Virus record (IMG/VR): IMGVR_UViG_2558860288_000002
Reading direction: 5' to 3' (one strand)
Length of the DNA: 5,739 nucleotides
From: a virus
Lineage: Duplodnaviria; Heunggongvirae; Uroviricota; Caudoviricetes
Below the pieces are notes generated by a model, which was not told the DNA's origin, searched no databases, and saw only the letters and a list, made by a program, of their open reading frames with translations. Made by a program: the position numbers and the translations under genes. Shown one piece after another: positions 1,415 to 5,739 of the stretch (its first letter is position 1; each line of letters begins with the position of its first letter).

Positions 1415-1896
1415 GACAGCAGCCCTCCCACCGTTTTACTGATATCGCTTAAGGCAGACGTTGCCGTATCCTGCAAATTATTCAGCTGCGCACTGAGATC
1501 ACCGAACATATCGGACAGAGATTCATCCACCCGTTTGAGCGACAGGGTGAACTCAATCCGGCGCGGCATACCATCGCGGAAAAACTCCGTTTTAGTCTGA
1601 TTCAGTCCCTCAATCACATACATGCCGTAAATCGTGCCGCTGCCTTCAATCAGGGGCCATGCTTTTCCCTGTTCTGCCATCTGCTCCAGAGCCAGCAACG
1701 ACAGCCTGCCGCCCGTTATCTCCGGCATAAGAACACCAGAAAGCGTCAGCATGTCGTTGTCCGGTCCCAGAAACTGCGTGGACGGACGACGGTTTAGCCG
1801 GCTGTTTGCCGCATGTCGCCAGCTGCGTTGATACTGCAGTTCCTGATACGGAACGGTGCGCAGCATAAACACGTACAATCCCAGCACCATCATCAT
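1411..1896 (-). CDS. U: P2 gpU-like tail protein, 161 aa
   Basis: N-terminus MMMVLGLYVFMLRTVPYQELQYQ resembles remembered gpU-family N-termini. Size close to P2 gpU. ATG (1894-1896) overlaps the T stop (ATGA), with an AGGGGGGA Shine-Dalgarno 8 nt upstream. Sits between T and D. Confidence 0.8.
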   Translation of the reverse strand: MMMVLGLYVFMLRTVPYQELQYQRSWRHAANSRLNRRPSTQFLGPDNDMLTLSGVLMPEITGGRLSLLALEQMAEQGKAWPLIEGSGTIYGMYVIEGLNQTKTEFFRDGMPRRIEFTLSLKRVDESLSDMFGDLSAQLNNLQDTATSALSDISKTVGGLLS

Positions 1897-4800
1897 GCGT
1901 CGTATCCCCCCTGATCGCTGTAGTTACTCCTGGCTTTTGCCTTCAGCCTGCGTTCACGTTCATCAAGCTGGCGGGCCACCTCCCGCGCAATATCCTGCGC
2001 ACTTTGTCCTGGCTGCGTCTGAATGATGATCTGCGTCGGTGCCTCAATCCGTTGAACGGGCGGCACAGTGGCTGCACGACTCACCATCGCTTCGCCGCCT
2101 TTCGAGGGAAGTGCCAAAGGATGCAACGGTGGAAGCTCTGCAGGCGCGGCAGCAACGCCCATCATTCCGGCAACAACGGCAGCCAGTGAAGCTGTATTTC
2201 TCCGGCTGGTCACATTTGCCGGGCCGTTAACAATTTCCGGCCCGTTTTCACCGACGATGCCAAACTGCCCGCGCGGGATATAGCCGCCGCTGTCATACAT
2301 CCCCGCAAAGCCATATCCCCATGACGGAAAACCACCCGATGGCATCATCACTTTACCGTCTGCATTCACCGTCGCAGGTTGCTGACGCGTCACTCTTTCC
2401 GGCAGTTTCGCCTTTGCAGCCTCTTTACTGACAATGCCGAGTTTCTCCAGCAACCAGGAAACGCCGGATTTCAGGGAGTCCAGCGGATGCATGACCATAT
2501 TCAGCCCTTCCGCCAGTGCCTCCCCGAATCGTCGCCCCATTGCCGCTGCGCTCTGCAGTTCGGCAGAGGTCGACTTAACGGGCGTCAGCAGATCAGTAAA
2601 CCAGCCCCACAACGCCTGCACTTTGTCGCCAATCCACTGAAACACAGGCTTAAGTGGTTCGAATGCTGCACTGATGGGACCTGCCGCCGCTTTGAATCCT
2701 TCCACCACACCAGCGAGAAATGCGGTGATGGGTTGCCAGTATTTCCAGACAACCAGCGCCACGCCCGCCAGTGCAGTGACCACAAGACCTATCGGACTGA
2801 GCAGAGCACCTAACAGACCAGATATGGCATACAGGGCAACGCGCAGCATCGCCAGCGGACCGGATGCCAGTACTCGCAGCACCGCGCCTGCGGCAGCCAG
2901 TCCACCGCGTAGTGCTGCCAGTGGATTCATAAACATCACAGCAACAGCACGTAAACCGGATAATCCAGACCGCAACAGTGCAACCGGCACACCTGCTACA
3001 GTTTTCAGGACATTCCCCGTCAGTGATGCCGTGCGGCGCAAAGACGACAACGGCGCAGTAAGTAAACCCGCTGCGTTGCCCGATGAAGCAAGCCCGCGTC
3101 GCAGCCGTACCAGTGGAGCGCCAGCTAACCAGGACAACGCGCTGCTGGTTCGTGTTACTGCTGCCGTAACGGAAGGTAACGTTTTGATACCCAGTACAGA
3201 GAATCCCAGACGGATCACTGCCAGCGGCCCCAGCACTGCAGCCAGCGCCACAGCTAAGGTGCCGAGGCCTACGGTAACCGCAGCCACAACAGCCGCTACT
3301 TTCATCAGTGTGCCTGTCAGTTCCGGGTTAGCTTCCACCCAGCGGCGCAACGCCCCCGTGATGCTTTTCACCGTGTACAGAATATCCATCAGCGGCTGGC
3401 GCAGCGTTTCGCCCAGGCTGCTGAAGGTGTTCTGCGCTCCGGTTTTGACCAGCAACCACTGAGCAGAAAGTGAGTCTTTGTTGATGTCGGATTCTTTCTG
3501 CATGGAACCGAGCGCATCATTGCCCGCTGTCAGTTTTAGCTGGCGCCGCAGTTCCGGAAGGTTGTTTGCCAGTTTCGCCGCGTCATCACCAAACTCTTTA
3601 CCAAACAACATGGTCATGGCAGACAGACGCTTGTCCTGCGGCAGTGCGTTCACCTTCTCCAGCACACGCTGGATAGTTCCCATCGCATCCTTCGTCATCT
3701 GCTTTTCAATCACTTCAGGATTGAGTTTCAGCAGATTCATCCCTTCAAAGAAACTCTTGCTTTGCATGGTGGCAATGGACAATTCACGCACCATCGCGTT
3801 TGCTGCACTGGCTGCAACCTCCGGCGCAGCGCCCAGTGTCAGAAAGGTGGAACCCAGTGCCGCCGCTTTACGATAATCCAGACGGTCAGCCACACCGCCC
3901 AGACGTTGCATCACATCAATGATGTCCGCCCCTTTCGACATGGCGTTATCATCCAGATAGTTCAGCGCATCGCCGAGCTGTTCAATATTGCGGGTAGGTA
4001 TTTTGTAGAGCTGGGCGATTTTCCCCAGACTTTCTGACAGTTCATCCGCTGGCAGCTCAAAGGCTGTTGCCGCCTTTGCTGCCGTACTGGCGAAGGCCAG
4101 CAGGTCACGTTTCTGGTCTTCCCAGCTGTCGTCAGGGTTTGCGACGTTCATGCGCGCACCACCTTCAACCAGTGCAGCGAAGTCCACCGCACCGTTTTCC
4201 ATCGGCAACTGTTCGCTGGCAGCCTTGATGACATCCTGCATTTCATAAAAACGTGCAGTGCGGTTGCCAGTATCGTCACGCAGACCATTGACCTGCTTTG
4301 CCACACCTTTCATGGCATCTTCCATGCTGGTATAGCTTTTTACTGCCGCCATCACTGGCGCACCCATTGCCAGCCCTGCAGCCGTGGTAGTGGCTCCGGC
4401 TCCTGCGATGCGATCGCGCACTTCAAGCCGTCTTGAGTATTGTTCTCTGACAGCGTTCATCCGTGCCTGTTGTTCACCCAGACGTTTAAGTGCTTTTTGC
4501 TGGCCCTCCAATGCCTGCCTTGTTTCTTCAGCATTTTTCTTAAGTTCTCGCTGGGCACTACTGAGTTGTCTGGTATCAATCCCTGATTCTTTAAGTGCCT
4601 GACGTTGTCTCTGGACCGCCCCCAACAAGCCGTTATAGGTCTGCTGAAGTTCCTGTGCTCGTGTTTTGGCCTGACTGAATAACTTTGCCTGCGCGGCGGT
4701 TGGCCTGTTAGTGGCAGCAAATTGTGTGGCGAGTTTTGCCGCCTCTTCGCGGGCTGCGTTCAGGTTGTTGGCTGTTATGGCTAGTTGCGAGCGCGTCTTG

Positions 4801-4970
4801 CGAAATTCATCAATTCTGCCAGCCTGCTTATTTAGTTCTTTGAGGCTGTTTCGGGTATTCTGAATTGCGCCAGCCAGCTCTTTCGAACTGGCCTGTGCAG
4901 CACGAAATGGGCGGGTGAGTTTGTCAACCGCATTAAGAATGACCTGCAGGCGCAGGTTATTATCACTCAT
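1893..4970 (-). CDS. T: Phage tail tape measure protein (gpT-like), 1025 aa
   Basis: Single uninterrupted 1025-aa ORF. The N-terminal ~190 aa are Q/A/K/R/E-rich and look coiled-coil. A central segment (KSYTSMEDAMKGVAKQ...) looks like a tape-measure core. A long Ala/Leu/Gly/Val-rich hydrophobic region (aa ~555-760) contains ~21-aa periodic repeats. It is the largest gene in the block and lies directly upstream of gpU/gpD. Confidence 0.9.
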   Translation of the reverse strand: MSDNNLRLQVILNAVDKLTRPFRAAQASSKELAGAIQNTRNSLKELNKQAGRIDEFRKTRSQLAITANNLNAAREEAAKLATQFAATNRPTAAQAKLFSQAKTRAQELQQTYNGLLGAVQRQRQALKESGIDTRQLSSAQRELKKNAEETRQALEGQQKALKRLGEQQARMNAVREQYSRRLEVRDRIAGAGATTTAAGLAMGAPVMAAVKSYTSMEDAMKGVAKQVNGLRDDTGNRTARFYEMQDVIKAASEQLPMENGAVDFAALVEGGARMNVANPDDSWEDQKRDLLAFASTAAKAATAFELPADELSESLGKIAQLYKIPTRNIEQLGDALNYLDDNAMSKGADIIDVMQRLGGVADRLDYRKAAALGSTFLTLGAAPEVAASAANAMVRELSIATMQSKSFFEGMNLLKLNPEVIEKQMTKDAMGTIQRVLEKVNALPQDKRLSAMTMLFGKEFGDDAAKLANNLPELRRQLKLTAGNDALGSMQKESDINKDSLSAQWLLVKTGAQNTFSSLGETLRQPLMDILYTVKSITGALRRWVEANPELTGTLMKVAAVVAAVTVGLGTLAVALAAVLGPLAVIRLGFSVLGIKTLPSVTAAVTRTSSALSWLAGAPLVRLRRGLASSGNAAGLLTAPLSSLRRTASLTGNVLKTVAGVPVALLRSGLSGLRAVAVMFMNPLAALRGGLAAAGAVLRVLASGPLAMLRVALYAISGLLGALLSPIGLVVTALAGVALVVWKYWQPITAFLAGVVEGFKAAAGPISAAFEPLKPVFQWIGDKVQALWGWFTDLLTPVKSTSAELQSAAAMGRRFGEALAEGLNMVMHPLDSLKSGVSWLLEKLGIVSKEAAKAKLPERVTRQQPATVNADGKVMMPSGGFPSWGYGFAGMYDSGGYIPRGQFGIVGENGPEIVNGPANVTSRRNTASLAAVVAGMMGVAAAPAELPPLHPLALPSKGGEAMVSRAATVPPVQRIEAPTQIIIQTQPGQSAQDIAREVARQLDERERRLKAKARSNYSDQGGYDA
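2766..3122 (-). repeat. In-frame periodic repeat inside the tape measure gene: about six ~21-aa units of the form PL..LR..L....G..L
   Basis: Protein segments APLVRLRRGLASSGNAAGLLT / APLSSLRRTASLTGNVLKTVAG / VPVALLRSGLSGLRAVAVMFMN / PLAALRGGLAAAGAVLRVLASG / PLAMLRVALYAISGLLGALLS / PIGLVVTALAGVALVV (T residues ~617-735). Confidence 0.5.
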
Positions 4971-5328
4971 CGTTGGCCCCGCTTCTCTGAATTGCTTTAT
5001 ACCGCCATTCCAGCACTTCGGTCAGCGGCATAACGTCAGTAACGGATGGCGGCCAGTGAAAAATGGTGGCGATAACGCCACCATTGATCACCACTTCGCT
5101 GTTAATGCGCGTGCGGTCAGCCTCCAGTACAAACTCACTGGTTTTCATGGTGATGTTGTCAGCGGCCTCAATGACCATTGATTTGATGCCCCTGACATAC
5201 CAGCGCCCGGTGGCGGGTTCGTATTCAAACCAGCCACCGTCAGGATGTTCTGTCACGCAGGCGTTCGCCGACGTCGACGGTGGCGCGAACTGATTCGAAT
5301 AGATGGCGGGTACGGCTGCAGACGACAA
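4963..5328 (-). CDS. Hypothetical phage ORF at the position expected for the tail assembly chaperone E/E'; possibly an N-terminally truncated or fused remnant. The first ATG is at 5178, giving a 71-aa product (4963..5178)
   Basis: Open frame ending 8 nt inside the T start. The track start is a TTG at 5328 and the frame stays open upstream with no ATG until 5176-5178. Its upper part overlaps the truncated endolysin ORF in another frame. No intact partner ORF exists in the frame from which a -1 shift would enter it (stops at 5253, 5145, 5088 and 5022). Identity is unresolved. Confidence 0.3.
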   Translation of the reverse strand: MSSAAVPAIYSNQFAPPSTSANACVTEHPDGGWFEYEPATGRWYVRGIKSMVIEAADNITMKTSEFVLEADRTRINSEVVINGGVIATIFHWPPSVTDVMPLTEVLEWRYKAIQRSGANDE

Positions 5329-5453
5329 CCTTCGTAATCGGCAATCAGTTTCAGCCCTTCCACGGAGGTGTGAAGCTGCTGAAAACCCGGCAGCGTGGCA
5401 GCAATAGCCAGCACGGCCCCGACAAGGCAGCGTTTAACGATTGATGGATTCAT
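5253..5453 (-). pseudogene. Truncated SAR-type endolysin (T4-lysozyme-like, GH24): only ~48 N-terminal codons are recognisable (5310..5453), followed by an out-of-frame Arg-rich tail
   Basis: N-terminus MNPSIVKRCLVGAVLAIAATLPG is a weakly hydrophobic signal-anchor-release-like segment, followed by EGLKLIADYEGCRLQPY, which resembles the start of the lysozyme catalytic motif (catalytic Glu region). Full-length members are about 160-180 aa; here the ORF ends at 66 aa with PPSIRISSRHRRRRRTPA, which does not look like lysozyme. The ATG at 5451-5453 overlaps the holin 3' end by 20 nt, and a GGAGG sits just upstream. Confidence 0.55.
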
Positions 5454-5649
5454 AGTCCTCCCGCGAGATCTGCCCGTCGCGCAGAAGCTGGTAGGCTTTG
5501 TGTTTGTAGTACCAGTTGATAGCCAGCATCAGCACACCAATCATCAGGCCGCCCAGCGTTGAGGCATCCTTGATGGACAAATCGCCCAGCCAGGCCAGCA
5601 CAACGGCGATGCAGTACGTGATAAAGGCGCTGATTCGCTCAAGCGTCAT
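5434..5649 (-). CDS. Class II (two-TMD) phage holin, pinholin-like, 71 aa
   Basis: 71-aa product with two predicted transmembrane segments (ISAFITYCIAVVLAWLG and TLGGLMIGVLMLAINWYY) and a charged C-terminus (KHKAYQLLRDGQISREDYESINR). Lies immediately upstream of, and overlapping, the SAR-endolysin start, which is the usual holin-endolysin arrangement. GGGA Shine-Dalgarno about 7 nt upstream of the ATG at 5647-5649. Confidence 0.65.
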   Translation of the reverse strand: MTLERISAFITYCIAVVLAWLGDLSIKDASTLGGLMIGVLMLAINWYYKHKAYQLLRDGQISREDYESINR

Positions 5650-5727
5650 AATTCAGTCCCATAGCTGGACGGTCTGCACGGTGGTGGTGGTCGGTATGTC
5701 CGGCAGCTCCACCTGCAGCCCGTGAGG

Positions 5728-5739
5728 TAAAAAGGGGCC
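5728..5739 (-). terminator. Possible 3' half of an intrinsic terminator upstream of the holin (GGCCCC followed by TTTTT on the minus strand); the stem partner would lie beyond the window end
   Basis: Minus strand reads 5'-GGCCCCTTTTTACC-3' at 5739..5726, about 80 nt upstream of the holin ATG. Lambdoid late operons carry a terminator (tR'-like) just upstream of the holin gene. Only half the element is visible. Confidence 0.2.

Follow-up and report, generated by a model that had tools for sequence, protein, structure and literature searches.

The stretch of DNA analysed here (5,739 nucleotides, hereafter the window) is the end of contig AHHN01000009.1 of Escherichia coli ECC-Z (GCA_000498235.1); it stops one base before the end of the contig. 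ECC-Z is a bovine mastitis isolate whose genome was obtained by 454 sequencing and assembled with Newbler (PMC4373696). Every long open reading frame lies on the minus strand of the window, and searching these frames against Pfam reveals an HP1-family holin, a GpE-family tail fragment, a tape-measure protein, GpU, GpD and Ogr. On the 3' side of ogr, a 160-aa ORF is followed by smpB, ratA, rnfH, bamE and recN, and these smpB-side neighbours of ogr show that the prophage sits at the ssrA site. The 160-aa ORF between ogr and ssrA, which is outside the window (L002 5741–6223), is conserved; depending on the record, it is annotated as hypothetical, as "BRCT domain-containing" or as "putative exonuclease".

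As a reference we used the intact Escherichia phage Cartapus (NC_070909; Peduoviridae, Elveevirus; 33 kb). When compared to Cartapus by BLAST, the whole window resolves into three collinear blocks, with 96.6–98.4% identity. The first block (window 5739–5311, Cartapus 7051–7479) contains the end of X, the holin gene and nucleotides 1–143 of the endolysin gene; the second (window about 5312–5073, Cartapus 10121–10358) comes from the inside of the baseplate gene V (9881–10459); the third (window 5083–1, Cartapus 17729–22812) consists of the end of E', and then T, U, D and ogr. The order of the genes is the same as in Cartapus and in related intact P2-like prophages of E. coli and Klebsiella, and T, U, D and ogr are also of equal length, but ECC-Z lacks about 10 kb of the Cartapus sequence (7480–10120 and about 10359–17729). 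The collinear and homologous arrangement X–holin–K...V...E'–T–U–D–ogr, beside ssrA/smpB, identifies a P2-like (Peduoviridae) late region. It is not that of a functional prophage: the catalytic part of K, lysB, R, S, W, J, I, H, G, the invertase gene, FI, FII and E are all absent.

A preliminary description of this locus had considered either a mosaic joint or a single internal deletion, which would have removed the baseplate, fibre, sheath and tube genes and left T-U-D-ogr intact. The three-block alignment to Cartapus agrees with this account of which genes were lost and which were kept. A mosaic joint is excluded by this alignment, as far as sequence data allow. An internal deletion is the right kind of event, except that there are two deletions, with a 240-bp piece of V between them, rather than one. 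The alignment of the whole locus to an intact relative, which had been suggested as a check, places the joints, once refined with the closest parents, at 5311–5312 and 5073–5074.

The tail gene X is represented in the window by its 3' part (5652–5739, minus strand); the Logan contig L007 runs 430 nt further into X and L. A megablast search against phage genomes shows that window 5311–5739 is 97.4–98.8% identical to the X–holin–endolysin segment of intact P2-like elements of E. coli and Klebsiella. The holin, of the HP1/P2-Y type (5434–5649, minus strand), is intact, as had been supposed: it has the 71 aa of the Cartapus holin (98.4% identity to Cartapus 7141–7356) and matches PF16080 with 36.7 bits, above the cut-off of 28.8. 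The next gene, K', consists of the first 143 nt (codons 1–47 and two bases) of a P1-Lyz-type SAR endolysin gene (5311–5453, minus strand), and is part of an ORF of 66 aa (5453–5253) whose start overlaps the end of the holin gene by 20 nt. A GGGAGGA Shine-Dalgarno sequence is found 4 nt 5' of its ATG. These 143 nt and the endolysin gene of intact phages are 98% identical, so that the approximately 48 endolysin codons, the overlapping start and the Shine-Dalgarno sequence noted in the preliminary description are all confirmed; the break, which had been placed "around 5310", turns out to be sharp, since the similarity ends exactly at 5311/5310.

K' retains the SAR helix, Glu41 and Cys43, and the remainder of the enzyme is gone; the 66-aa product has no match to the lysozyme family PF00959 in Pfam. 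The assignment of the gene to the SAR type is supported by the endolysin of an intact relative, which matches P1 Lyz (1XJT) with E=3e-26, including the motif EGCRxxPYxCxAGVWTDGIGNT. Like the SAR endolysins P1 Lyz and P21 R (1XJT, 1XJU, 3HDE), K' has an N-terminal Gly/Ala-rich SAR helix with Cys9, but the match ends after Tyr48, and Cys50 and the entire GH24 body are missing. What is left of a P1 Lyz-type (GH24) enzyme is therefore its SAR segment, the GH24 muramidase domain having been lost. The last 18 codons of the 66-aa product (PPSIRISSRHRRRRRTPA; 5253–5310, minus strand), whose Arg-rich sequence had been rightly said not to be lysozyme, are gene V read in the wrong frame. Full-length homologues of this product, which would speak against a break, were looked for and none was found: its 90% cluster has a single member, and its tail is absent from the other short endolysin fragments, about 70 in number. 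In other records, in-frame fusions of holin and endolysin (P0081, P0086, P0119 and P0120) recur, in which the holin ...GVLMLAI is joined to the endolysin ...AATLPG; they are seen with E. coli-type and with more divergent endolysin sequence, and probably arise by slippage between short similar stretches.

Joint 1 is a dinucleotide, TA, at 5311–5312, which is common to K (nt 142–143) and V; the sequence lost at this joint (deletion 1) corresponds to Cartapus 7480–10120, that is, 2641 bp (about 2.64 kb). The joint is followed by an internal piece of 240 bp of the baseplate spike gene V, codons 81–159 of 192 (5073–5312, minus strand). The closest parent of this piece is the gene V of E. coli B27, which is 100% identical over window 5073–5312 and was used to place joint 1. 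The V codons 81–159 are read in their native frame and are joined, without a shift of frame, to the final 36 codons of E'. The resulting chimeric V'–E' frame codes for 121 aa from a TTG (4963–5328, minus strand), whereas its annotation begins at the ATG at 5178 and gives 71 aa; no convincing ribosome-binding site was found for it. An "unrelated ORF" running into gpT had been reported at this place: the frame does indeed run into the start of the tape-measure gene, at 4970, but it is not unrelated, since it is the V'–E' fusion (GpE, E=1e-15).

Joint 2 is again a TA dinucleotide, at 5073–5074, common to V and E/E'; here about 7.37 kb are lost (deletion 2, Cartapus about 10359–17729). The parent used for the E region at this joint is strain AF5. 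The joint is located at the edge of an imperfect direct repeat whose core is TGGTGGC (in V, GATCAATGGTGGCGTTA; in E, GATC-TGGTGGCTGATA). It is followed by the last 36 codons of the E' frame (4963–5074, minus strand), which give a match to GpE (PF06528, E=9.7e-16) over residues 86–119 of the 121-aa ORF. E' is the frameshift extension of the tail chaperone E. The gene E itself is deleted (Cartapus E, 17414–17716, is inside deletion 2), and the TAC_7 ORF with a slippery site that would define a frameshifted gpE/gpE+E' chaperone is not present: only the end of E' is there, fused to V'.

The strongest inverted repeat in the region (5056–5091, 16-nt arms, 88% complementary) has its centre at joint 2. 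Intact phages have a native hairpin, TGGTGGC-N7-GCCACCA, 3' of the stop codon of E, of which this repeat is a hybrid, and deletion 2 rebuilt this hairpin in hybrid form because V resembles its left arm. This similarity accounts for the palindrome, which we do not retain as a mechanistic signal. Regarding the 20-bp imperfect palindrome that had been pointed out just beyond the break, it exists (5266–5285, 12-nt arms, 83% complementary), but it is ordinary, native V coding sequence, also present in intact Cartapus; it is off the joint, at 26–45 nt from joint 1, is one of 7 comparable inverted repeats in 511 nt, and has no demonstrable role.

Beyond joint 2, the tape-measure gene T (1893–4970, 1025 aa), U (1411–1896, 161 aa; PF06995, E=2.9e-44), D (314–1414, 366 aa; PF05954) and the late-gene activator ogr (27–245, 72 aa as annotated) are intact, all on the minus strand. 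Together with the holin gene, these are the only intact ORFs left in the window. Deletion 1 removed the body of the endolysin gene, the spanin gene(s), R, S, a moron ORF, the promoter region of V and V codons 1–80; deletion 2 removed the sequence for the C-terminus of V, W, J, I, the fibre and fibre-assembly genes, the invertase gene, the sheath gene FI, the tube gene FII and the chaperone gene E. Judging from this gene content, the element is probably unable to lyse the cell, having neither muramidase nor spanins, or to build tails. T, U and D have lost the F promoter and their upstream translational partner E, and would be expressed only by read-through from the O operon, while the K' and V'–E' peptides are likely to be by-products. 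It may be that ogr still acts in trans.

Both joints, and the anatomy that they define, are reproduced in a second assembly. The Logan contig SRR5569415_874 (1294 nt) is 100% identical to window 5739–4876 (864 nt) and crosses the two joints, which speaks strongly against the misassembly considered in the preliminary description. SRR5569415 is a separate public run, assembled with a different program, and may be a re-sequencing of ECC-Z or come from a related isolate; a literature search found no paper that mentions it. One could argue that the contig is a chimera, in which reads from a single intact P2-like prophage, or from two, were joined: ECC-Z was assembled as a 454/Newbler draft whose contig ends 290 nt upstream, inside gene X, the Logan contig is short, and a second similar prophage may lie behind both contig breaks. 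However, a different assembler, used on a run with a different accession, produced the identical 864 nt, the 2-nt overlaps at the joints are far too short for overlap or k-mer misjoins, and equivalent joints are present in finished E. coli genomes. We consider an artefact extremely improbable. Regarding the contig ends themselves, the 454 and Logan contigs both break near X/L (window 5739; L007 1–430), and the latter has another break early in T; this could be due to a second P2-like prophage of similar sequence in ECC-Z.

The joints were found in none of 5426 complete E. coli genomes, and none of the same genomes contains an intermediate in which one joint is present without the other. The exact T protein and the K' and V'–E' peptides are confined to ECC-Z and to the SRR5569415 assembly. 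For these reasons, the deletion event looks recent and strain-specific.

Similar, multiply deleted remnants of the Cartapus type of phage are found in other E. coli (EC26, N196, IAL7255, 22F46, IMG 638341082 and L031). Their joints have 2–8 nt of microhomology, and a single element may show up to four separate deletions. The classic case of a P2-type remnant is the ogrK/yegZ element of K-12, reportedly described by Barreiro and Haggard-Ljungquist in 1992. Like the other cryptic P2-like remnants of E. coli, that of ECC-Z is defective and its att-proximal D/ogr end has survived; unlike them, it has this particular pair of joints, which keeps a 240-bp island of V together with a complete T-U-D. 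The right-hand ends of the deletions in ECC-Z, EC26 and IAL7255 are at Cartapus 17730, 17783 and 17786 (window about 5027–5083; L003 17023; L005 9034): the three lie within 57 nt, just upstream of the start of T, and those of EC26 and IAL7255 are within 3 nt of each other. The cargo at the Q-proximal and S–V sites differs between remnants (an AAA ATPase with DUF4435, AIPR, AAA_15/21, and a P-loop NTPase beside HsdR, at L003 19035–21138, L031 1–1496, L035 1–1428 and L004 15052–18868), which indicates that these remnants derive from distinct phages.

IAL7255, whose element is at a different attachment site, and the IMG isolate contig L008 are broken after the same nucleotide of the endolysin gene as ECC-Z (...CTGCAGCCGTA), with different partners: the S region in IAL7255 and the middle of T in L008. 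Three protein searches with the N-terminus of the endolysin gave roughly 100 fragments, from which frameshifts and contig-end partials were set aside. With the break position being our judgement of where each fragment departs from intact K, and fragments not being collapsed by host lineage, the deletion chimeras cluster sharply: breaks at codon 36–38 have 4 different partners, those at codon 47–49 have 6, and those at codon 53/54 (...GCGCGGGTG) have 18, compared to 2 at codon 71–72 and 1 each at codons 67, 96 and 101. Further breaks were seen at codons 135 and 143 (1 partner each) and at codon 153–156 (5 different partners), in a range where the sampling is incomplete (beyond codon 100; the protein search returned products up to about 1.7 times the length of the query). 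Endolysin nt 141–147, and especially nt ~160 (Cartapus 7477–7497; window 5294–5311), are thus left-hand ends with at least 24 different right-hand partners, in independent prophages that include phages 5% diverged. Six of the codon-53 joints were confirmed at the DNA level (L031, L032, L035, L038, L041 and L042), with partners in V, J, D and FI.

Among the 957 complete-genome records that contain this gene segment, five have a best match that ends within endolysin nt 101–220; the matches listed for these five include 22F46, ending at nt 160, and the remainder most likely correspond to the four IAL clones, whose break is at nt 143. A pattern scan for breaks at endolysin nt 143 detected one true case, L008, in viral_contigs, while in genome_contigs and metagenome_contigs all matches (21 of 21) are chance 17-mers from unrelated genomes.

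The ends of the V piece are also reused. L031 keeps V 10119–10360 (L031 8159–8400) between a joint at K nt 160 and a joint in T. Its V piece differs from that of ECC-Z at 12 of 240 positions (5% diverged), which shows that the two events are independent. In L041 and L042 (near position 6160), V 10357–10360 (V nt ~477–480) forms the right-hand end, so that the side on which this place bounds a deletion differs between elements, being the left in some and the right in others. Inspection of the joints seen at the DNA level (the window, L003, L005, L008, L031 and L038) gives TA or TG as the microhomology in most cases. A literature search on deletion hot spots in P2-like prophages found nothing relevant.

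Various causes of this recurrence were considered. A DNA hairpin at the endolysin hot spot was rejected, the folding of Cartapus 7420–7560 giving z=-0.18 compared to shuffled sequences. With regard to RecBCD/Chi-limited resection, no perfect Chi octamer (GCTGGTGG) is present on either strand of the 33 kb of Cartapus, where about one is expected by chance; some ends have correctly oriented, G-rich strings that resemble Chi (TGGTGGCG, GCGGGTG) on the 3'-ending strand, and other ends lack them. A terminase pseudo-cos site was discarded because the local alignment of K nt 121–200 with the cos region has a score of only 13. The native hix-like invertase sites of 26 bp (TTCTCGCATACC-TT-GGTTTGGGAGAA and its partner) have a TT/AA centre; the centres of the joints are TA/TG, and in a comparison made by eye and unscored the flanks of the joints bear no resemblance to the native sites, so that pseudo-sites of a serine invertase (Gin/Hin-type) were not retained either. 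In a search for 9–13-mers of the K hot spot that recur elsewhere in the phage, the only one found is a 13-mer, present as an inverted copy in gene Q, probably by chance. The hairpin, cos and invertase hypotheses are not supported, the Chi-like strings are not consistently present, and no mechanism for the recurrence was found among those considered.

On the basis of these sequence comparisons, we propose, with a probability of about 0.9, that ECC-Z carries at ssrA a defective Cartapus-type P2-like prophage, from which two illegitimate, microhomology-level deletions would have removed about 10 kb of the late region. The first deletion would extend from endolysin nt 144 to V codon 80, and the second from V codon 160 up to the edge of the final 36 codons of E'. 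The route is probably short-homology illegitimate recombination, either by replication slippage or by end joining after a break. Overlaps that consist of TA only, and the location of joint 2 at the imperfect TGGTGGC repeat, are the signature of short homology rather than of site-specific or homologous recombination, and neither joint contains the end of a mobile element or the core site of a recombinase. The joints of the other remnants share with short-homology illegitimate recombination in E. coli the 2–8 nt overlaps, the imperfect flanking repeats and the absence of IS or recombinase sites. What simple microhomology does not readily predict, however, is that a few sites are strongly reused with many different partners, and that TA and TG prevail. 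The recurrence of the break points in other strains suggests that the deletions are not purely random microhomology events.

We also considered that the two joints might result from a single complex repair event, in which one or several breaks were resected and rejoined and the 240-bp V piece was captured or spared. No genome with one joint alone was found among the 5426 complete genomes, the same dinucleotide is present at both joints, and the independent remnant L031 keeps nearly the same V piece with other outer partners, which suggests that the ends of this piece are preferred break sites, possibly cut together. However, the V piece is collinear and in its native orientation, which is also what two ordinary deletions would leave, and other remnants show up to 3 or 4 separate deletions each. 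Serial decay is therefore common and is the default reading, and a single event appears rather unlikely. Another hypothesis is that the element is not decaying but is a functional, streamlined one: a satellite, for example, or a module resembling a tailocin, or a T-U-D-ogr cassette that has been domesticated. It is true that T, U, D and ogr are full-length ORFs, and that in three remnants the right-hand ends of the deletions are 57–113 nt upstream of the start of T. But T, U and D have no known role when the tube, sheath and baseplate are absent, T, U or D are freely truncated in other remnants, and the exact arrangement is unique to ECC-Z, so that we regard this hypothesis as very unlikely. 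The reading in terms of two deletions in a decaying prophage is the one that we retain.

The case of ECC-Z is one of ordinary prophage decay, and the recurrent break points are the only notable lead. Its immediate relevance is to annotation: in ECC-Z, the 66-aa product annotated as "lysozyme protein R" and that of 71 aa annotated as "tail protein" are chimeras created by deletion. Regarding the break points, we put forward, as a tentative idea about which doubt outweighs confidence, that endolysin nt 141–162, V nt ~477–480 and V nt ~240 (Cartapus 10119–21) may be sequence-determined hot spots of breakage and rejoining, which would disarm the lysis and tail modules of P2-like prophages repeatedly and independently. 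If this were true, there would be a preferred, quasi-programmed path of prophage domestication, by way of a site-specific break, a replication pause or a nuclease, and the ECC-Z element would be one of its products. If the recurrence is confirmed, it would provide an experimentally tractable site at which illegitimate deletion can be studied in vivo, and it would mean that the inactivation of prophages in E. coli is partly deterministic.
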